From an uncultured Deinococcales bacterium (GTDB taxonomy: Bacteria; Deinococcota; Deinococci; Deinococcales; JAAFIG01), in the NCBI GenBank assembly GCA_964244895.1, contig CAXTKV010000009.1:1-52113 (forward strand): a DNA stretch of 52,113 nt, read 5' to 3'. The notes under the pieces are model-generated. The model searched no databases and was not told where the DNA came from. It saw nothing but the letters and a program-made list of their open reading frames with translations. Made by a program: the position numbers and the translations under genes. Positions 23,710 to 33,956 of this stretch are shown here, in pieces (the stretch's first letter is position 1; each line of letters begins with the position of its first letter).

Positions 23710-24771
23710 ATGCCATCTCGAGGACGCCACAAGATTTTCGTCGGAGCCGCCGCCGGTGTCGGCAAAACCTACCGGGCACTTCAGGAAATCCGCGACCGCC
23801 GCAAGGACGGCGCGGACGCGCTGATCGGCGTGCTGGAAACGCACGGGCGCACCGAAACCGTGGCCGCCGCCGAGGGCTTACCGCTCTTTCCGCGCCTGGA
23901 AATCGAGTACAAGGGCGTGACCCTGCGCGAGCTCGACGTGGACGGATTGATCGAACGCGCCCCGCAACTCGTGATGGTCGACGAGCTGGCGCACACCAAC
24001 GCGCCCGGATCGAAAAACCCGAAGCGCTTCCAGGACGTTGAACGCCTTCTAGAGGCGGGCATCGACGTGATCAGCACGCTCAACGTCCAGCACCTCGAGA
24101 GCCTGAACGACGACGTGGCGCGTTTAACCGGCGTGCGGGTGCGCGAACGCGTGCCGGATCGGGTGGTGCTGGACGCCGACGAGGTCGTGATCGTGGACAT
24201 CAGCCCGGAGGCGCTCCAGGAGCGGCTCAAAGCCGGAAAGATCTACGCCCGCGACAAGGTCGATCAGGCGCTGGGCAGTTTCTTCAAGCTCGAGAACCTC
24301 AGCACCTTGCGCGAGATCGCGCTCCGGCACACGGCGGACGTGGTCGAGGAAGAACCGCGCCGCCCCGAGGAAGTCCTGGGGCGCGGCATCAAAGAGCACA
24401 TCGCGATCGCGGTGCGCGCCGAAGCCCGCGAGGCCAGGCTGATCCGGCGCGGCGCGAGGGTCGCGCAGCGCTTATCGGCGGATCTGGTGGTGGTTCACGT
24501 CAAGCAGCGCCCGTACCTGGACAATGAACTCGAGGTGCTGAACGAACTCGAAGCCCTGACCCGCGAATTCGGCGGCGGCTGGCACGTGATCGAGGGCAGC
24601 GACATCGCCTCGAGCCTGGTGTCGTTCATCCGCCAGCAGGACGTGACGCAGGTGGTCGTCGGCGAGACGCACCGATCCCGGCTGGCGGAGATCGTCAAGG
24701 GCAGCGTGGTTCACGAGGTCATGCGCCGCACGCACGGCGTGGACGTGTACGTGATCGCAGACGAGGATTGA
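23710..24771 (+). CDS. kdpD: Stand-alone KdpD N-terminal sensor (KdpD domain plus USP domain; no TM or kinase)
   Basis: GRHKIFVGAAAGVGKTY, ETHGR, VDELAHTN and STLNVQHLESLND motifs, then a USP domain (VTQVVVGET...GSVVHEVMR); ends without a transmitter domain. Confidence 0.9.
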   Translation: MPSRGRHKIFVGAAAGVGKTYRALQEIRDRRKDGADALIGVLETHGRTETVAAAEGLPLFPRLEIEYKGVTLRELDVDGLIERAPQLVMVDELAHTNAPGSKNPKRFQDVERLLEAGIDVISTLNVQHLESLNDDVARLTGVRVRERVPDRVVLDADEVVIVDISPEALQERLKAGKIYARDKVDQALGSFFKLENLSTLREIALRHTADVVEEEPRRPEEVLGRGIKEHIAIAVRAEAREARLIRRGARVAQRLSADLVVVHVKQRPYLDNELEVLNELEALTREFGGGWHVIEGSDIASSLVSFIRQQDVTQVVVGETHRSRLAEIVKGSVVHEVMRRTHGVDVYVIADED

Positions 24772-24829: not shown

Positions 24830-25498
24830 CTAAAGCAATCCCTTGCGGAGCGCCTTGACCGCCGCCTGCGTCCTGTCTGACACGCGCAGACGCTCCAGAA
24901 TCTCCTGAACGTGGGTTTTGACGGTTGAGAGGCTGATCTCGAGCGCCTGCGCGATTTCCTTGTTGCCCATGCCGTCCGCGATCAAGCGCAGTACCTCGAG
25001 TTCGCGGGGTGACAGGTTGGTTTCACCATCGCTGGCGGGCGTGATGCGGCCCAGCACCAGGTGCGCGATCTGCGGGTCGAGGTAGGCGCTGCCCAACGCG
25101 GCGGCGCGAATGGCGATCAGCAGGCTCGAGGGGTCGGTGGTCTTGAGGCAGTACGCGTCCGCACCGCTCGCCAGGGCGGCCAGCACCTCCTGCTCGAGTT
25201 GATGCACGGTCAGCATGACGACGCGGGCTTTCGGGTGCGCGGCCTTGAGGCGGCGCGTGGCCTCGATGCCGTCAATGCCGGGCAAGCCGATGTCCATCAC
25301 GACCACGTCGGCGGGGTGTTCCGAGTACAACTCGAGCGCCTCCTCGCCGCTGCGGGCCTCGCCGATGACGCGCAGGCCGGGGTCGCGGTTGATCGCCACG
25401 CGCAGCCCGTCGCGGGTGAAGGCGTGATCTTCGACCAAAAAGACCGTGTTTCCCGAATCATCAATGGCGGGCACCGCGCCGGGCGCGTTCTCGTTCAC
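24830..25498 (-). CDS. NarL/LuxR-family response regulator
   Basis: VEDH, VVVMDIGLPGIDG receiver domain; LSPRELEVL...GNKEIA...TVKTHV LuxR HTH. Confidence 0.93.
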   Translation of the reverse strand: MNENAPGAVPAIDDSGNTVFLVEDHAFTRDGLRVAINRDPGLRVIGEARSGEEALELYSEHPADVVVMDIGLPGIDGIEATRRLKAAHPKARVVMLTVHQLEQEVLAALASGADAYCLKTTDPSSLLIAIRAAALGSAYLDPQIAHLVLGRITPASDGETNLSPRELEVLRLIADGMGNKEIAQALEISLSTVKTHVQEILERLRVSDRTQAAVKALRKGLL

Positions 25499-27048
25499 GC
25501 CGTCCCCAACGGTGTTTTCTGCACAGTAGGGCTGCCCACGGCGGGCAGCTCGAACCAGAAGACGCTGCCGCCGCCCTCGCGCGGGTGGTAGCCGATGCGC
25601 CCACCGTGGGCCTCGATGATGCGCCGGGAAAGGTACAGGCCCAGACCGCTGCCGCCGCCCGCTCGCCCGCCCGCGAAGCGCGTGAACAGCCGCGGTTCGA
25701 GTTCGAGGTTGACGCCCGGCCCGCGATCCGCGACCTCAAGCCTGACCAGGCCGGGTTTCGAGGAACCGTCCGTGCGCTCCAGGTTGACTTCGATCCTCGA
25801 TTGCGGTGGGCTCCAGCGCACGGCGTTCTCCAGCAGGTTCTGGATCACGCGGCGCAGGTCGGGACTGCTACCGCGCACGACAGACGCATCCTGAAGGTTC
25901 CATTCCAGGTTCAAGCCCTTCTCGCGCATCGGATTCTCGAGGCGCACGGCCACGGCTCGGGCCTCGCGCTCGAGGCCGACGGTATCGTCCTGGGTGCGGG
26001 TCTCGCCGCTCTCGTAACGCGCCACCAACAGCAGCGTGTCCGCCAGCGCCAGCAAGTCCTCGTTGGCTTCCATGCCGTGCTCCAGGTTGTGGCGGTACTC
26101 GTCGCTGATCGGGCCGAACGCGCCCTCGAGCGCCAGACGCATGTTGACGCCGTTCGCCACCAATGGCGTGCGCAGGTCGTGGCTGAAGGCGTAGACCAGA
26201 TCGCGGATCACACCGCTGCGGCGTTCGAGTTCCAGGCGGTTGCGCTCGAGGCGCTCGAAGAGTTCCACACGCTCTAACGCGGCACTGAGCGGCGCGATCA
26301 GATTTTCGACGATCACCGTGGCGTCTTTTCTGGGTTCCAAGATTCCCAACAGAAGCGGCGCGCGCCCCGACCACGACAGGCCCGCGATCAGGGCGCGGTT
26401 GGCAATCAGACCGTAATCTGCGGCCTGTTCGGTCAGGATCACCCGTTCCGGCCCCGCACCGACCAACCAGGCGGGCAGCCGCGAACCGATCGGCCAGGCC
26501 GCCAACGACTGCGGCTGCGCGACCCTCGGTGCGGCGAACGACTCGACCCCGCCCGAGGCCAGCACCACCCCTCTGGCCTCGAGCGCCACCGTCAGCGATT
26601 CCGCCACCTTGCTTAAGGCCGCTTCGAGCGTGCGCTCGCCGTTGACCGCCGCCAGCACGCGTTCGATGTCGCGCTCGCGGCGGGCTCGGGCTTCTTCGAG
26701 GCGCAGCGCGCCCAATCGGCTCGAGGTCACGGACAAGGCCGTGGTCATCCAACCGACCAGCACGAACGATGCCGCCAGCAGGCCGCGGTTGGCCAGGCTG
26801 ACCGCATCGAAAGCGCCGTCCGCGCGGGCGTTCAACCAACCCGCGACGGCATCCGTGATGAGCGCCGCGATCACCAGCCCCAGGGTGAAGCGCCTCGAGA
26901 ACACCAGCCCGGATAGCGCAATCGGGATGTTCAACAGGATCGCCACCACCAGCCGTTGCGGGGTCAGCACGTCCGCCGTCACGAACGCCACGAACATCAC
27001 CAGGCAGGCCGTCATGACCGGCGCGGCGAGGGGCGGACGAACGTTCAC
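25495..27048 (-). CDS. Membrane histidine kinase (KdpD C-terminal-half-like)
   Basis: About 4 N-terminal TM helices; H-box SHDLRTPL; NLLENAVR, DRGPG and GSGLGL motifs. Start GTG27048 has TACGAT -10 6 nt upstream. Confidence 0.9.
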   Translation of the reverse strand: MNVRPPLAAPVMTACLVMFVAFVTADVLTPQRLVVAILLNIPIALSGLVFSRRFTLGLVIAALITDAVAGWLNARADGAFDAVSLANRGLLAASFVLVGWMTTALSVTSSRLGALRLEEARARRERDIERVLAAVNGERTLEAALSKVAESLTVALEARGVVLASGGVESFAAPRVAQPQSLAAWPIGSRLPAWLVGAGPERVILTEQAADYGLIANRALIAGLSWSGRAPLLLGILEPRKDATVIVENLIAPLSAALERVELFERLERNRLELERRSGVIRDLVYAFSHDLRTPLVANGVNMRLALEGAFGPISDEYRHNLEHGMEANEDLLALADTLLLVARYESGETRTQDDTVGLEREARAVAVRLENPMREKGLNLEWNLQDASVVRGSSPDLRRVIQNLLENAVRWSPPQSRIEVNLERTDGSSKPGLVRLEVADRGPGVNLELEPRLFTRFAGGRAGGGSGLGLYLSRRIIEAHGGRIGYHPREGGGSVFWFELPAVGSPTVQKTPLGTA

Positions 27049-27096
27049 AGCCGCATCGTACCGCGCCGCGCCGTACCGCCACAGACGCAACCTCAA

Positions 27097-27120
27097 GGGG
27101 TCGGTCATGTGGCTGACCCC
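27097..27120. promoter_or_regulatory. Imperfect palindrome in the divergent kinase/kdp promoter region (candidate regulator site)
   Basis: GGGGTCGGTCAT / GTGGCTGACCCC, about 40 nt upstream of a TAGGTT -10-like hexamer (27161-27166). Confidence 0.35.
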
Positions 27121-27205
27121 GCGCGTCACCCGGCGGATACCGCGCGTGGCGGCCCGCGCCTAGGTTCATGTGTGAAGGAGCCTGAGGCTCCAAAGGAGGC
27201 ATCTT

Positions 27206-27286
27206 GTGCTGTGGGTTCTGTTGATTATCGCGGTCTTGCTCGGGGCGTACCTGGTGTACGCGATGTTGAAACCGGAGGCGTTCTGA
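27206..27286 (+). CDS. kdpF: KdpF, K+-ATPase small subunit (26 aa)
   Basis: AAGGAGG RBS; MLWVLLIIAVLLGAYLVYAMLKPEAF* matches the YLxYAxxxPExF KdpF motif. Not in the ORF track. Confidence 0.88.
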   Translation: MLWVLLIIAVLLGAYLVYAMLKPEAF

Positions 27287-27367
27287 ATGGTCATCTTCGG
27301 ATTGTTGATCCTGGTCGGTCTGTTCCTGCTCTGCGGAGCCTTCATCGGCGGTTCGGAACGGATGTGA
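27287..27367 (+). CDS. 26-aa hydrophobic peptide, kdp-associated
   Basis: ATG directly after the kdpF stop; MVIFGLLILVGLFLLCGAFIGGSERM*. Confidence 0.7.
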   Translation: MVIFGLLILVGLFLLCGAFIGGSERM

Positions 27368-27504
27368 ACCCGATGATCGAAGTGCTCGAGGTGCTGGTCA
27401 TGACGGCGTTCCTGAGCTGGGGTTTGTTCACTTGGCTGACGCGTGAACCCTTCCGGGTCGAGCTCAAATCCAGACCCGGAGGGCTCGAGCGGAGCGGGTC
27501 GTGA
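27364..27504 (+). CDS. 46-aa single-TM peptide, kdp-associated
   Basis: GTGA overlap with the previous stop; MNPMIEVLEVLVMTAFLSWGLFTWLTREPFRVELKSRPGGLERSGS*. Confidence 0.6.
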   Translation: MNPMIEVLEVLVMTAFLSWGLFTWLTREPFRVELKSRPGGLERSGS

Positions 27505-27602
27505 ATCACGCCGAAATTCTGAGCGTTTTGATCTTCGTCCCGTTGGTTTGCTTGAGCTTCGCGATGGGTCAACGCGCGCTGCGCGAGCAGTGGTGGAAGT
27601 AA
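27501..27602 (+). CDS. 33-aa single-TM peptide, kdp-associated
   Basis: GTGA overlap; MNHAEILSVLIFVPLVCLSFAMGQRALREQWWK*. Confidence 0.6.
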   Translation: MNHAEILSVLIFVPLVCLSFAMGQRALREQWWK

Positions 27603-27617
27603 CTGAGGAGGCTCGGC

Positions 27618-27821
27618 GTGACGCCGTTCTTGAACATGGTGGCCGTGATCGCACTGCTCTCCTGGACGCTGATCATCCTCAGCATTGTGAATGACCTCAG
27701 ACGCCTGCTCGAGCGCGAACGTTCAGAGCGACCGCCTCGAGCGCGCAATCGAATGGAGAGACACGGTGGGCGCGCAACCTCGAGGCACGATGACCGAAAG
27801 GTCTTGAAGGGGAAACACTGA
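27618..27821 (+). CDS. 67-aa single-TM protein with basic tail, coupled to kdpA
   Basis: GAGGAGG RBS, N-terminal hydrophobic helix, TGATG overlap with the kdpA start. Confidence 0.6.
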   Translation: MTPFLNMVAVIALLSWTLIILSIVNDLRRLLERERSERPPRARNRMERHGGRATSRHDDRKVLKGKH

Positions 27822-29677
27822 TGGAAGTCCTATTGACATACGCAGCAATCTTCTTGCTCGCTTGGCCGCTCGGGATCTACATGTCCCGCGTGTTCCACGG
27901 CGAGCGCACCTTCCTCGACCCCGTGCTGAACCCAGTCGAACGCGGAATGTATCGGCTTTTTCGAATCGATTCCGAGCGCGGCATGGACTGGCGCGGCTAC
28001 GCCATGGCGATCCTCTGGACGAACCTGCCGATCGCCCTGGTCGGCTACCTGATCCTGGTCTTCCAGGACAAACTGCCGCTCAATCCGGACAACATGGGGC
28101 CAGTTTCGTGGGTCACGGCGCTCCACACGGCGGCATCTTTTATCACGAATACGAACCAGCAGCATTACTCGGGACAGGCGCAGTTCTCGTATTTTTCTCA
28201 GATCGTCGCGCTGGTCACGATGATGTTCGTCACGCCCGCCGTCGGCATGGCCGCGATGATCGCCGTGCTGCGCGGCATCACCGGCGGATTGCGCCCAAAG
28301 GACGTGCCCGAATATGCGCCGTTGACGTGCGCCAACCTGGGCAACTACTACGTGGACGTGACCCGGGCCATCACGCGCTTGCTGCTGCCGTTGTCGCTGG
28401 TGCTGGCGCTGATCCTGACTGCTCAGGGCGTCCCGAGCACGTTCTCTGGAGCCAAAACGGCCACGCTGCTCGAGCCGTACACGGTCACCAACCAGGATAA
28501 AACCACCACCAAGGTCACGACCCAGACGATTCCCGTCGGGCCGGTCGCGTCGCTGGTGGCGATCAAGCAAATCGGTACGAACGGCGGCGGTTGGTACGGC
28601 CCGAATAGCGCTGCGCCGCTCGAGAACCCGACGCCGCTGACAAACTTCCTGGAAGCCATTTCAATTTTGCTGATTCCCGTATCGGGCATCTTCATGATCG
28701 GGTACTTCACGCGCCGCCCGCGTTTCGGCGTGACGATCATGGGCATCATGGTCGTGCTCTCGGTCGCGCTGGCCTTCGTCTCGATCTCAACGGGTACGCA
28801 ACCGAATTCGGCCTTCGCGGGCCTGGCCGCGCCGGGGCCAAACATGGAGGGCGTGGAAACCCGAATTGGTACGGTCGCATCGACCTTGTGGGCCACGATC
28901 ACGACGCAGACCTCGAACGGTTCAGTCAACGCCATGCACGATTCGCTGAACCCGATCACGCTGTTGGTGCCATTCACCGGGATGTGGCTCAACCTGATCT
29001 TCGGCGGCGAAGGCGTGGGCTTTTTGAACTTCTTCGTTTACCTAATCGTGACCGTGTTCATTGCGGGGTTGATGGTCGGGCGCACACCGGAACTGTTCGG
29101 GCGAAAGGTCGAGGCTCGAGAAATGAAGCTCGCATCGATCGCGCTTCTATTAGGCACGGTGCTGGTGCTGGTGCCGTCCGCCATCACGCTGGCCATTCCC
29201 GCCATCACCGGCAATTCCAACCCGGCCTTCCACGGCCTGTCTCAGGTGCTCTACGAGTACTCTTCAGCCTTCGCCAACAACGGTTCCGGTCTGGCTGGGC
29301 TGGGCACGGCTGAGTCGACCTGGTGGAACGTGACCTGCGCGGTCGTACTGATTCTGGGGCGCTTCATCCCGATCATCGCACCGCTGGCCATCGCGGGATT
29401 CCTGGGAGCCAAGAAGGCCGCACCAGAGACTTCCGGCACGCTTCGGGTGGACACGGCTATTTTTGCCGGGACGACGCTCAGCGTGATCCTGATCGTCGGC
29501 GCGCTGAACTTCCTGCCCGTCGCGGTTCTGGGGCCGATCGCGGAAAGCCTGAGCGTCGGCAAACCCTTACCCGCGCCCGTGCCGCTCGGCTCGAGCCTGA
29601 ACGCGCCATATCCGACACCTGCTGTCACGACCAAACCCGCCCTGACACCTACTGAACTCGCCGTGAGGTCACGATAA
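27821..29677 (+). CDS. kdpA: K+-transporting ATPase subunit A
   Basis: Pore-loop motifs [29 protein letters not shown] and [14 protein letters not shown]. Confidence 0.97.
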
Positions 29678-31737
29678 TGCAAGCCTCGACGCCCAATTCC
29701 AAAAGCACCAGCCGCCGCGCCGCGCCGCTGATCGCGCCAGATCAGATCGGCTCGAGCCTGGCGGAAGCCTTCCGCAAACTGAATCCCCTATACATCGCCA
29801 AGAACCCCGTGATGTTCGTGGTCGAGGTCGGCACGGTCATCACGCTGTACTTCACGGTTGCCAATGCCCTCGCGGGCAAGTCCTTCGGTTACGAACTGGC
29901 CATCACCGTCCTGCTGTTCCTGACGGTCTTGTTTGCCACCTTCGCTGAGGCCGTCGCGGAGGCGCGCGGCAAAGCGCAAGCCTCGTCCCTGCGAGCCGCG
30001 CGCGCCGACACGCCATCCAGACGCATCGTCGGCGAACGCGAGGAGACCGTCTCGAGCACGATGCTCACCAAGGACGACCGCGTGCGCGTCAGCGCTGGCG
30101 AGATCATTCCCGCCGACGGCGAGATCGTAGAGGGGCTGGCGATGGTGGATGAATCTGCCATCACGGGTGAATCCGCGCCCGTCCTGCGCGAATCCGGCGG
30201 TGACTTCTCGAGCGTCACGGGCGGCACGAAAGTCCTGTCCGACGAAATCGTCGTGCGCGTCAGTACCCTACCTGGCGAGAGCTTCCTGGATCGCATGATC
30301 GCGCTGATCGAGGGGGCGAGCCGCCAGAAAACCCCGAACGAGATCGCGCTCAGCATCCTCCTGGCCGGATTCACCCTGATTTTCCTGGTCGTGACCGCGA
30401 CCCTTTTGCCCTTCGCCGCGTTCGTCGGCACGACGGTCAGCGTCACGACGCTGGTGGCCCTGCTGGTCTGCCTGATCCCGACGACCATCGGCGGGTTGCT
30501 GCCCGCCATCGGCATCGCGGGCATGGATCGCGCATTGCGGGCAAACATCATCGCCAAGTCCGGGCGTGCCGTAGAAGTCGCGGGCGACATCGACACGCTG
30601 CTGCTGGACAAGACGGGCACGATCACGCTGGGCAACCGACAGGCAACCGCTTTCGTGCCGGTTCCCGGCGTGACCGAAGAGCGCCTGGCGCACGCCGCGC
30701 ACCTGGCATCTCTGGCGGACGGCACGCCGGAGGGCAAGAGCATCGTGGAACTGGCGCAGATCAGGGGCTCGAAGGTGGACGCCGGATTCCGCGAGAAATC
30801 CGAATTCATCGAGTTCACTGCGCAGACCCGCATGAGCGGCGTCAACGCGCCGGATGGCAAGCAGATCCGCAAGGGCGCGCCCGACCGGATGATGCGCATG
30901 GTCAAGGAGTCCTACCACCCCGTCCCACCGGAACTCGAGGCGGCGGTCGAACGCATCGCGCGCGGTGGCGGCACGCCATTGATCGTGGCAGAGGACGGCG
31001 AAGCGTTGGGCGTGGTGGCGCTTTCCGACATCGTCAAGACGGGCATCAAGGAGCGCTTCGCGCAGCTTCGCAAAATGGGTTTGAAAACCGTCATGATCAC
31101 TGGCGACAACCCACTGACTGCCAAGGCCATCGCCGACGAGGCCGGAGTGGACGACTTCCTGGCCGAAGCCACCCCCGAAGACAAAATGCGCATGATCAAG
31201 GAAGAGCAGGCCAAGGGCAAGCTGGTCGCCATGATGGGCGACGGCACGAACGACGCCCCGGCCCTCGCGCAGGCGGACGTGGGACTGGCCATGAACTCCG
31301 GCACGCAGGCCGCCAAGGAAGCGGGCAACATGGTCGATCTGGACTCCGACCCGACCAAGCTCCTGGAGGTCGTCGAGATCGGCAAGCAACTCTTGATCAC
31401 GCGCGGCGCACTGACCACCTTCAGCATCGCCAATGACGTGGCCAAATACTTCGCGATCCTGCCCGCGATGTTCGCGGGAACCATTCCGGCGCTGAACGCC
31501 CTGAACGTCATGGGGCTCGCCAGCCCGCAGAGCGCAATCCTGAGCGCGGTGATCTTCAACGCGATCATCATCCCTGCGCTCATTCCCGTGGCGCTGCGCG
31601 GCGTCAAGTACCGCCCATCGAGCGCCAACACGATCCTGGCCAACAACTTGCTGGTCTACGGCCTGGGCGGAGTGATCCTGCCGTTTATCGGTATCAAACT
31701 GATCGATCTCGTGCTGGCCGCGCTGCGGCTGACCTGA
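29677..31737 (+). CDS. kdpB: K+-transporting P-type ATPase subunit B
   Basis: [18 protein letters not shown] and [10 protein letters not shown] motifs. Confidence 0.98.
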
Positions 31738-31747
31738 AGGGATTCAT

Positions 31748-32371
31748 ATGATCGCCAAGACCATCGACCCAACCACCGTCACGCTCGAAAATCTGGACTC
31801 GAGCGGTGGCACCCCCCTGACCTGGATCATCTTCGGGGTTGCATCGTTTGTCCTCTGGGGGCTGCTGTACCCGGTCGTCATCACCCTGATTGGCGGGGCG
31901 CTGTTTCCCGGCCCGGCCAACGGATCGCTGATCGAGAAGAACGGTCAGGTCGTCGGCTCGAGCCTGATCGGACAGAATTTCGCATCCGCCAAGTACTTCA
32001 TTGGGCGCCCTTCGGCGGCGGGTACCGGCAACAATCCGACTTCGATGTCGGGCTCGAACTACGGTTCGTCGAACCCCGCACTGCGCGAGCGGGCCGAAGG
32101 CGATTCGAAAGCGATCGCGGCCAGAGAAGGTGTCACGCCCGATCTGATTCCGGTCGATCTGATCGCCGCGTCGGGCGCGGGCGTGGATCCGCACATCAGC
32201 CCGGCGGGTGCCGAGCTTCAGGTCAACCGCATCGCGAAAGCTCGAGGACTCGACCCGCAAAAGGTGCGCGAACTCGTGCAGGCGAACACGCAGCAACCCC
32301 TGGTCGGTGCGCTCGGCATGCCTCGGGTGAATGTGCTCGAGTTGAACCTGGCGCTCGATGCCCTGAAATAA
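31748..32371 (+). CDS. kdpC: K+-transporting ATPase subunit C
   Basis: ANGSLI, GSSLIGQ, SGSN, GVDPHIS and VNVLELNLALD motifs. Confidence 0.96.
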   Translation: MIAKTIDPTTVTLENLDSSGGTPLTWIIFGVASFVLWGLLYPVVITLIGGALFPGPANGSLIEKNGQVVGSSLIGQNFASAKYFIGRPSAAGTGNNPTSMSGSNYGSSNPALRERAEGDSKAIAAREGVTPDLIPVDLIAASGAGVDPHISPAGAELQVNRIAKARGLDPQKVRELVQANTQQPLVGALGMPRVNVLELNLALDALK

Positions 32372-32420: not shown

Positions 32421-33956
32421 ATGTCACTCGCGGATCGCTTGCTGGGGCGAAGGCTGGCCAACAAGGAGGAAGGCGAGCAACGCATCGGCCCGTTGATGGG
32501 CGTGCCCGTCCTGGGATTGGACGCGCTCTCGAGCGCCGCTTACGGCCCGGAGACGGCGCTGACGGTGCTGTTACCGCTCAGGGCGCTCGGGCTGAACGTC
32601 ATCGAACCGATCACGGCGCTGGTGGTGGCGATTTTGTTGATCGTTTACCTCTCGTACCGTCAGACCATCGCCGCCTACCCGAACGGCGGCGGATCGTACA
32701 CGGTCGCCAAGGAAAACCTGGGTGAACGACCCGGATTGATCGCAGCTGCGGCGCTGGTGATCGATTACATTCTGAACGTCGCGGTGGGCATCTCGGCTGG
32801 TGTCGGCGCACTGGTCTCTGCGGTTCCAGCATTGCTGCCGGGACGGCTGGTGCTGTGCCTGGTAATTCTGGTCGCGATCGCACTGGTGAACCTGCGCGGC
32901 GTCCGAGAATCCGGCGCGGCCTTCATGATGCCCACGGTGCTGTTCGTCGGATGCCTGTTCGCGGTGCTGGTGGCGGCGGTGACGGGGCGGGGCGTTTTTT
33001 ATTACCTGACGATCGCCGCCGTGCTGGCGGTACTTTCCCTGTCGGCCAACACCAGCTTCGCGGATTTTCCAAGGCTCTGTCGCGCGATCGCGCTCGATGA
33101 CTACCTGCCTCACGCCTTCTCCGCGCGTGGCCGACGCCTCGTATTCACCGCCGGAATCGTCGTGCTGTCCGTACTCGCGGGGATTCTGCTGGTCGCGTTC
33201 GGTGGCGTGACCGACCGCTTCATTCCGTTGTTCGCCATCGGTGCGTTCCTGGCCTTCACCATGTCCCAGGCGGGCATGGTGGCGCACTGGCGCAAGATCG
33301 GCGGGCGCGGCACGCGAGTACCGATGCTGGTCAATGGCCTGGGCGCGATCACGACCGGCGCGACGCTGATCGTGCTGATCGCTTCAAAATTCACCGAGGG
33401 CGCGTGGGTGACGGTGCTGATGATCCCGGCCCTGCTGCGCGTCTTCGCCGGAGCCAAACGCCACTACCGCAGCGTCACCCGCGAAACGGCTTGCACGCTG
33501 CCGCTCGACCTGACCGAGCTGCAAGCCCCGATCGTGGTCGTGCCCGTCAAGGGTTGGGACACCATCGCCCGAAAAGCCCTGCGTTTCGCCATGAAACTTT
33601 CGCCGGACGTCAAAGCGATTCACGTCAGATCCAGCGATCTGGAAAGCGATCTCGAGCGAGATTGGTTGTGGCTGGTGGCGGCACCCGCGACCAGCGCAGG
33701 TCGAGCCCCGCCCGAGCTGATCGCCGCGCCCAGTCCGTACCGGCGCTTCTTTCAGCCGTTCCTCGAGGGGATCGAACGGCTCGAGCTCGAGAACCCCGAC
33801 CGGCAGATCGCGGTGATCATCCCGGAACTGGTCGAGGCGCGCTGGTACCACTACCTGCTGCACAACCAGCGCGCCACGACCCTCAAGGCGCTGTTGCTGT
33901 TTCGAGGAAATCGTCGGATCGTCGTGGTGAACGTGCCGTGGTATCTGGCAAACTGA
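32421..33956 (+). CDS. KimA/YdaO-like APC-family K+ transporter with apparent internal in-frame deletion (possible pseudogene)
   Basis: DALSSAAYG, YPNGGGSYTVAKENLG, IDYIL, NLRGVRESG and ANTSFADFP motifs. The RAF..GC.ALTGVEA(I/V)SN helix region is absent. Confidence 0.8.
   Translation: MSLADRLLGRRLANKEEGEQRIGPLMGVPVLGLDALSSAAYGPETALTVLLPLRALGLNVIEPITALVVAILLIVYLSYRQTIAAYPNGGGSYTVAKENLGERPGLIAAAALVIDYILNVAVGISAGVGALVSAVPALLPGRLVLCLVILVAIALVNLRGVRESGAAFMMPTVLFVGCLFAVLVAAVTGRGVFYYLTIAAVLAVLSLSANTSFADFPRLCRAIALDDYLPHAFSARGRRLVFTAGIVVLSVLAGILLVAFGGVTDRFIPLFAIGAFLAFTMSQAGMVAHWRKIGGRGTRVPMLVNGLGAITTGATLIVLIASKFTEGAWVTVLMIPALLRVFAGAKRHYRSVTRETACTLPLDLTELQAPIVVVPVKGWDTIARKALRFAMKLSPDVKAIHVRSSDLESDLERDWLWLVAAPATSAGRAPPELIAAPSPYRRFFQPFLEGIERLELENPDRQIAVIIPELVEARWYHYLLHNQRATTLKALLLFRGNRRIVVVNVPWYLAN

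Follow-up and report, generated by a model that had tools for sequence, protein, structure and literature searches.

How many small membrane peptides can a kdp operon carry ahead of its pump genes, and what might they do there? The window analysed here, a 52,113-nt stretch of one contig from an uncultured Deinococcales bacterium, raises this question. On its plus strand, five coupled hydrophobic ORFs fill the 616 nt ahead of kdpA (27206-27821). The initial annotation had described such a chain of membrane micro-ORFs, and the ORFs, their junctions and a GAGGAGG SD were all found as it described them. The locus contains the following features.

23710-24771 (start approximate), + strand: KdpD-N, a stand-alone N-terminal KdpD sensor with KdpD and Usp domains (PF02702, E 1e-89; PF00582)
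24830-25498, - strand: response regulator of LuxR type, belonging to the split Kdp two-component system (PF00072 and PF00196)
25495-27129 (start maybe 27102), - strand: membrane sensor histidine kinase, divergent from the kdp operon (HisKA and HATPase_c)
27103-27114, no strand assigned: imperfect inverted repeat of the GGTCA-N2-3-TGACC type, upstream of kdpF
27206-27286, + strand: ORF1, KdpF; 26 aa, GTG start, AGGAGG SD
27287-27367, + strand: ORF2, from a second, conserved family of kdp peptides and KdpZ-like in its position; 26 aa, ATG start
27364-27504, + strand: ORF3, predicted TM peptide with a basic tail; 46 aa from GTG, or 43 aa from the ATG at 27373
27501-27602, + strand: ORF4, predicted lineage-restricted TM peptide; 33 aa, GTG start
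27618-27821, + strand: ORF5, predicted TM helix with an Arg-rich tail; 67 aa, GTG start, own SD
27821-29677, + strand: kdpA, ATG at 27821 (PF03814, E 5e-211)
29677-31737, + strand: kdpB, E1-E2 ATPase and HAD domains
31748-32371, + strand: kdpC (PF02669)

The micro-ORFs are closely joined. ORF1 and ORF2 abut (TGA|ATG), and GTGA overlaps link ORF2 to ORF3 and ORF3 to ORF4. A 15-nt gap with GAGGAGG separates ORF4 from ORF5, which runs into kdpA through a TGATG overlap; kdpA has an SD-like AAGGGG of its own. Each ORF has one hydrophobic stretch, with 19-residue Kyte-Doolittle maxima of 2.52, 2.96, 1.77, 2.30 and 2.35 for ORFs 1 to 5. Lys and Arg are absent ahead of the helix and present after it in all five, a placement that predicts an N-out/C-in orientation for every product. 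GC3 is 0.73-0.88 across the five ORFs, against 0.81 for kdpA. The 43-aa form of ORF3 is present in a public protein collection (P0003).

The surrounding genes are those of a Kdp system with a split sensor. KdpD-N scores 400.5 bits on NF038185, under the 550 cut-off, and the best NCBIfam matches of the kinase include the C-terminal part of KdpD. The same divergent kinase/regulator layout is found in Deinococcus radiodurans (PMC5716572) and in A. silvanus. After kdpC lies a KimA-type K+ transporter gene (32421-33956, + strand; E 5e-90 to PDB 6S3K), whose 511-aa product apparently misses about 100 internal membrane-domain residues, in frame. The source genome (5.1 Mb) is the sole member of its genus among 19 genomes of an uncultured family, and its close relatives carry the label 'Deinococcales bacterium'. 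It holds 21,883 copies of CTCGAG, with about 1,711 expected from base composition, an abundance that we take to resemble HIP1-type repeats; several GC palindromes, among them CGGCCG and CCCGGG, are strongly avoided. Five CTCGAG copies fall within ORFs 3-5, a sign that this DNA is native and not a recent foreign arrival.

Could such a chain arise by chance? Counting both strands, the genome has 1,320 small hydrophobic ORF ends, and this is its only chain of at least three, at a hydrophobicity threshold of 1.75 that was chosen after ORF3 had been seen. Shuffled sequence never gave a chain of three in 1,000 trials. With 1,728 long ORFs as its training set, a codon model ranked the assigned frame best of six for each of ORFs 1-5, and the fractions of off-frame segments equalling the score were 0.0003, 0.006, 0.015, 0.041 and 0.115 for the five ORFs. 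A synonymous-only codon score was significant for no whole ORF, KdpF included (0.10-0.23). By these measures, all five coupled hydrophobic ORFs are real. The same measures bear on an alternative in which ORFs 3-5 are decaying remnants or neutral spacers, at most relaying ribosomes to kdpA. Against it, shuffling the ORF3-5 segment alone 1,000 times never gave two coupled hydrophobic frames, and codon use is coding-like in the helix parts of ORF3 and ORF5 (0.003 and 0.002). In its favour, codon use in the ORF5 tail is non-coding-like, scoring below 99.6% of true gene segments.

The identity of the first ORF, already given as KdpF in the initial annotation, is confirmed by its scores of 37.8 bits on PF09604 (cut-off 21.2) and 37.7 bits on TIGR02115 (cut-off 26.85). 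Its pN/pS is 0.29-0.37 against five relatives, with synonymous sites near saturation. KdpF is described as a lipid-dependent stabiliser that is missing from some species (PMC13042032), with a lipid-mediated role (PMC13042032, PMC6255902), and a paper on Caulobacter reports only an unannotated kdpF (PMC8552747).

The other four ORFs are not further copies of KdpF. ORFs 2-5 have no Pfam or NCBIfam KdpF match, and on a local KdpF profile they score 11.4, -1.2, 0.2 and 2.1 bits, with a control maximum of 13.8. Neither this profile nor a C-terminal P-E-x-F places them in the KdpF family. ORFs 3-5 score -0.3, -0.1 and -3.6 bits on the ORF2-family profile, no higher than the control median, and the family motif is absent from them. 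Shared LSW-L-like words had hinted that ORFs 3-5 might be paralogues of KdpF or ORF2, an idea that was rejected: measured against 1,697 TM controls, their scores are those of generic helices. DNA self-comparison also spoke against it, its best score being matched in 21 of 200 shuffles, and ORFs 3-5 are not DNA repeats of one another. Elsewhere in the source genome no paralogue was seen: the best matches reach E 0.33 (ORF1), 0.62 (ORF2) and 0.26 (ORF3), separate searches showed none for ORFs 4 and 5, and blastn of the ORF region returned the self-match alone.

ORF2 belongs to a family of its own. On a family profile built without the window it scores 39 bits, while the maximum among 1,697 TM controls is 8.8. 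It carries the family motif F-x9/10-[ED][RKQHN][LMI] (short form F-x9/10-[ED][RK]L). This motif, derived from the ORF2 family itself, occurs in 32 of 42 peptides encoded after kdpF, 19 of 22 encoded before it, 0 of 98 KdpF sequences and 1 of 1,697 TM controls. The after-kdpF and before-kdpF forms align by hhalign at 94% (E 1e-7), and to KdpF at only 66% and 4%. On profile and motif, the two forms are one family; ORF2 itself scores just 8.5 bits on a before-kdpF-only profile, a level reached by 27 of 1,697 controls. ORF2 matches no Pfam or NCBIfam family, a Pfam search with 69 members found no consistent family, and a PDB sequence search with the ORF2 alignment gave a best E of 0.18. In the ESM Atlas, the best match of a 32-aa ORF2 relative (0.83) falls in an unnamed cluster and is a lead only.

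The family is common in Deinococcota. There are 89 kdpA places in 88 of 364 genomes of the phylum; among the 88 outside the window, 74 were examined, one has too little upstream DNA and 13 lie outside the set. The ORF2 family scored in 66 of these 74 loci (40 after kdpF, 24 before it and two, L150 and L153, directly before kdpA with no KdpF detected nearby), on a profile drawn largely from the same loci. Both peptides are present in 64 loci. The remaining eight comprise one with neither peptide and seven with KdpF only by score; in four of these seven, inspection by eye shows a divergent helix at the ORF2 position. ORF2 has a pN/pS of 0.18-0.40 against five relatives, like KdpF and with synonymous sites near saturation, and by this measure its family is under purifying selection. 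A lack of conservation, which would have spoken against the extra ORFs, does not apply to ORF2, given its strong conservation across these loci. Beyond this Deinococcota set, the family scored in loci from Subdoligranulum, Rhodococcus, Rhizobium and Nonomuraea, and another 64 genome loci yielded six more cases, five of them proteobacterial; it did not score in the fetched E. coli, Halobacterium, Lactiplantibacillus, Comamonas or cyanobacterial loci. As judged from these profile searches, the ORF2 family is old, widespread and mostly unannotated.

What does ORF2 act on? Its coupling to kdpF by direct TGA|ATG abutment, and the persistence of its homologue beside kdpF in the rearranged operon of D. 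radiodurans, are consistent with a role next to KdpF in the pump. A feedback peptide on a sensor kinase, in the manner of MgrB, is another model. Here ORF2, with or without ORFs 3-5, would act on the divergent kinase or KdpD-N and not on the pump. In D. radiodurans the adjacent regulator drives the operon (PMC5716572), which would make the peptides natural feedback products (on feedback to the kinase, see also PMC10730256), and KdpF and KdpD interact in a mycobacterial two-hybrid assay (PMC3618439). On this last evidence the kinase could equally be the partner of ORF2. Yet the same source describes little change in kdp regulation from that interaction (PMC3618439). Peptides of the ORF2 family also adjoin kdpF in Deinococcota, Proteobacteria, Actinomycetota and Bacillota loci, and kinase layout probably differs among these groups. 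We consider kinase feedback improbable.

ORFs 3-5 have a different history. Across 220 distinct kdpA loci, each with 700 nt of upstream sequence, five helices occur in one (the window), four in none and three in 16. Twelve of those 16 are KdpB C-termini and one is doubtful (L049), which leaves a genuine third peptide in three of the 220, namely L002, L020 and one locus from Bacteroides. The first two are sister loci in the family of the source genome (support 99/96 in a tree of 36 rows and 136 columns, which gives the window no firm position), and each has a third helix joined by the same 4-nt overlap. In the Bacteroides finegoldii locus (L172:1118-1448), two unannotated hydrophobic micro-ORFs of 33 and 31 aa lie ahead of kdpF.

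ORF3 is the positional counterpart of the third ORFs in L002 and L020. Its pairwise score with the L002 peptide is reached by 1 of 2,165 controls, yet its profile score of 2.9 bits is reached by 120 of 2,165; its sole match among 5.8 billion proteins is itself. The L002 peptide has four further homologues (P0005, P0006, P0008 and P0009), known from sequences alone, in which the helix is conserved. ORF4 was considered as a homologue of the L020 third peptide and rejected (58 of 1,697 controls, not significant), and its ESM Atlas matches (at most 0.85, unnamed clusters) are leads only. ORF5 has two homologues, P0001 (87% identical) and P0002 (58% identical, 58 aa, with a nine-codon in-frame loss). 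Both keep its helix and its two ends; the last nine residues, retained in both, overlap the SD-like site of kdpA. In 18 genomes of the family, several of them incomplete, ORFs 3-5 have no match below E 0.018. From these searches, ORFs 3-5 are rare and confined to this lineage.

Differences from a related strain, about 7% diverged, indicate how these ORFs evolve. Its contig, from run X1, spans 27072-28300 with 83 differences and one gap. Substitution counts rest on the differences listed (40 of 96, of which 38 were used), and among these the synonymous to non-synonymous ratios are 1:0 for ORF2, 2:6 for ORF3, 6:3 for ORF4 and 2:6 for ORF5. On the listed differences ORF4 looks constrained (P 0.014, uncorrected and with an assumed transition weight), and for ORFs 3 and 5, which stay open and hydrophobic, substitution looks near-neutral. 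Sequence from X3 covers 27440-27669 with one difference and possibly comes from the source sample; it was excluded from the counts. The gap in X1 is a 1-nt deletion at 27764 that shifts the frame in the ORF5 tail. P0001 shares six ORF5 changes with X1 but has no such shift, which makes the deletion either polymorphic or an error of assembly. Disruption of the frames in relatives, an outcome that would count against coding, has this one candidate in the ORF5 tail; no stop codon appears in ORFs 1-5 among the listed differences. The initial annotation had treated the four extra peptides as one class. That grouping is supported neither by distribution nor by constraint, ORF2 being widespread and conserved, and ORFs 3-5 lineage-confined, with 3 and 5 near-neutral on the listed differences.

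The main proposal of the initial annotation amounts to an enlarged Kdp complex, in which each of the four extra peptides would serve as a stoichiometric subunit or an assembly factor. The close coupling of their translation to that of kdpA would suit such a complex, as would the shared predicted topology of the five peptides, the synonymous excess in ORF4, the persistence of ORF5 to 58% identity and the precedent of several small regulators serving P-type ATPases (PMC10925321). However, five of the six family genomes with upstream DNA have no third peptide at all despite KdpA identities of 62-69%. The ratios of ORFs 3 and 5 and the X1 frameshift also argue against it, and the third peptides of the sister lineages L002 and L020 barely align with each other (46 of 2,165 controls do as well). 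We hold an enlarged complex of this kind to be quite improbable.

Other loci show possible traces of decay. L003 has a 10-codon remnant at the ORF2-kdpA junction, and L120, L024 and L130 have non-coding gaps there. These, together with the near-neutral ORFs 3 and 5, the frameshift and the SD-like site that kdpA has of its own, are what decaying remnants or neutral spacers would predict. In addition to the shuffles and the codon use of the helices, the ORF5 SD core is kept in X1 and the nine-codon loss in P0002 is in frame, and both speak against decay. Remnants or spacers are on balance an unlikely description of ORFs 3-5.

We also considered RNA-level control. A search of sequencing runs for this DNA listed no RNA run. 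No sigma-70 promoter or terminator was found inside the ORF chain, and one transcript is inferred. The repeat at 27103-27114 is a candidate site for the LuxR-type Kdp regulator; a pattern written after seeing the regions recovers it in 9 of 16 Deinococcota kdp upstream regions. In D. radiodurans the regulator is required for kdp induction at low K+ (PMC5716572). A predicted hairpin and long stem (27450-27557) covers the ORF4 start (z -2.7, 1 of 7 windows). This structure, a weak match of ORF5 to YonT (E 0.0016) and an Arg-Pro-Pro in the ORF5 tail are the grounds on which ORF3 or ORF5 might be a leader/arrest or type I toxin-like peptide controlling downstream translation or membrane state. But the YonT match (NF047537) reaches 18.5 bits against a cut-off of 45, and listed X1 changes at 27457, 27479 and 27552, checked by hand, break the predicted stems. 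The centroid fold leaves the kdpA SD unpaired, P0002 lacks the Pro-Pro, and Rfam gave no match at gathering level within 26500-28500. We hold a leader or toxin role to be very improbable.

The reading that we favour, with modest confidence, is that KdpF and ORF2 form a pump-stabilising accessory pair, and that ORFs 3-5 are young, fast-evolving and probably dispensable co-translated additions. Under K+ limitation, the split KdpD-N/kinase/regulator system would activate a promoter that lies ahead of kdpF. Translation would begin at the kdpF SD, with ribosomes re-initiating across the overlapping stop and start codons, with further loading at the ORF5 SD and passage into kdpA. Each product would insert as an N-out/C-in helix. 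KdpF would take its known place in the pump, and ORF2 would probably be one more accessory helix that binds and stabilises the membrane domain of KdpABC. The analogies are the lipid-mediated role of KdpF (PMC13042032, PMC6255902) and the small regulators known from other P-type pumps (PMC10925321, PMC7535926, PMC10654040). ORFs 3-5 would be retained mainly as helices with basic tails, and not as partners with fixed interfaces, and would be gained and lost at the ORF2-kdpA junction. The 6:3 ratio of ORF4 and the helix conserved in the third-peptide family of the sister lineage (P0005, P0006, P0008 and P0009) suggest more constraint than 'dispensable' implies. A bolder version, which we think unlikely, makes the ORF2 family an unrecognised fifth Kdp subunit in many bacteria and adds three newborn peptides that dock on the pump or kinase here.

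The Kdp structures in the cited papers are of E. coli KdpFABC, from an operon with one micropeptide. Should the ORF2 family prove to be a subunit or a regulator, the KdpFABC model would lack a component in most Deinococcota and in some bacteria of other phyla. The two-, three- and five-peptide loci of one bacterial family form a natural series for the addition of small membrane ORFs to an operon. Were the fifth-subunit reading true, the pump would have five micropeptide partners and offer a visible case of accessory-subunit birth; if ORFs 3-5 are merely passengers, the locus is of interest for annotation only. By these comparisons the arrangement of five peptides is new but lineage-confined, and its function is putative.

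How does the locus compare with known systems? Like ORFs 1-5, the KdpF of KdpFABC is a single-helix peptide encoded at the head of the kdp operon; unlike the window, with its five, the fetched E. coli locus has kdpF alone before kdpA. The literature searched, which left older clostridial and cyanobacterial kdp papers outside, describes no additional peptides encoded between kdpF and kdpA. Among the small proteins that regulate P-type ATPases are MgtS (with MgtA), sarcolipin and phospholamban (PMC10925321). They resemble the window peptides in being single helices of about 30 aa tied to a pump; their binding and function are shown, and the window peptides are known from sequence alone. No significant sequence match points to an MgtS-like relationship, the best MgtS-like cluster in the Atlas reaching 0.79 (ORF4).

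C. acetobutylicum has two small genes before kdpA in its kdpZYABCXDE operon (Treuner-Lange 1997, as cited in PMC5401905). The window differs in its order, kdpF, ORF2 and three more ORFs, and ORF2 is KdpZ-like by position alone. KdpZ takes the first slot of its operon, as ORF2-family peptides do in other Bacillota, Actinomycetota and Proteobacteria loci; ORF2 itself is not the first gene ahead of a KdpF-like peptide, a place that its family takes in 24 of 74 Deinococcota loci. The clostridial KdpY is the counterpart of KdpF, hence Clostridium has one extra peptide and not the two that the initial annotation gave it. In a clostridial-class locus with two peptides (L175), the first scores as ORF2 family and the second as KdpF. 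The C. acetobutylicum operon suggests KdpZ as the published counterpart of the ORF2 family, which is under-recognised yet was foreshadowed by it.

A RefSeq protein of Mycetohabitans, WP_212667346.1, is a hydrophobic peptide of 34 aa whose gene is coupled to kdpF and which shows a comparable F...C-D-K-L pattern; its name, 'potassium ABC transporter ATPase', is an uncharacterised label. Alone it scores 2.9 bits on the Deinococcota profile, as do 130 of 1,697 controls; a five-sequence non-Deinococcota profile that includes it aligns with the after-kdpF form at 88% (E 3e-6). Separately, cyanobacterial 'subunit F' genes (L170:8488-8760 and L183:4355-4555) lie between kdpB and kdpC and are longer (90 and 66 aa). 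Their products resemble KdpF at the C-terminus and begin with an additional hydrophobic stretch, which does not score as ORF2 family.

Another known system is that of D. radiodurans, which has the same split into KdpD-N, SK and RR with SK-RR divergent (PMC5716572). Its gene order is kdpB-ORF2 family-kdpF-kdpA-kdpC, without a third to fifth peptide, and the ORF2-family peptide and kdpF lie at L174:4152-4438. The plasmid gene table shown for this species lists neither of them. UniProt entry DR_B0085 extends its KdpF to 71 aa, and a small-peptide study treats KdpF as this uncharacterised 71-aa DR_B0085; six supplementary files of that study (PMC9650054), when searched, did not contain the ORF2-family peptide. 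The role of the family could be tested in D. radiodurans, where its peptide sits between kdpB and kdpF.
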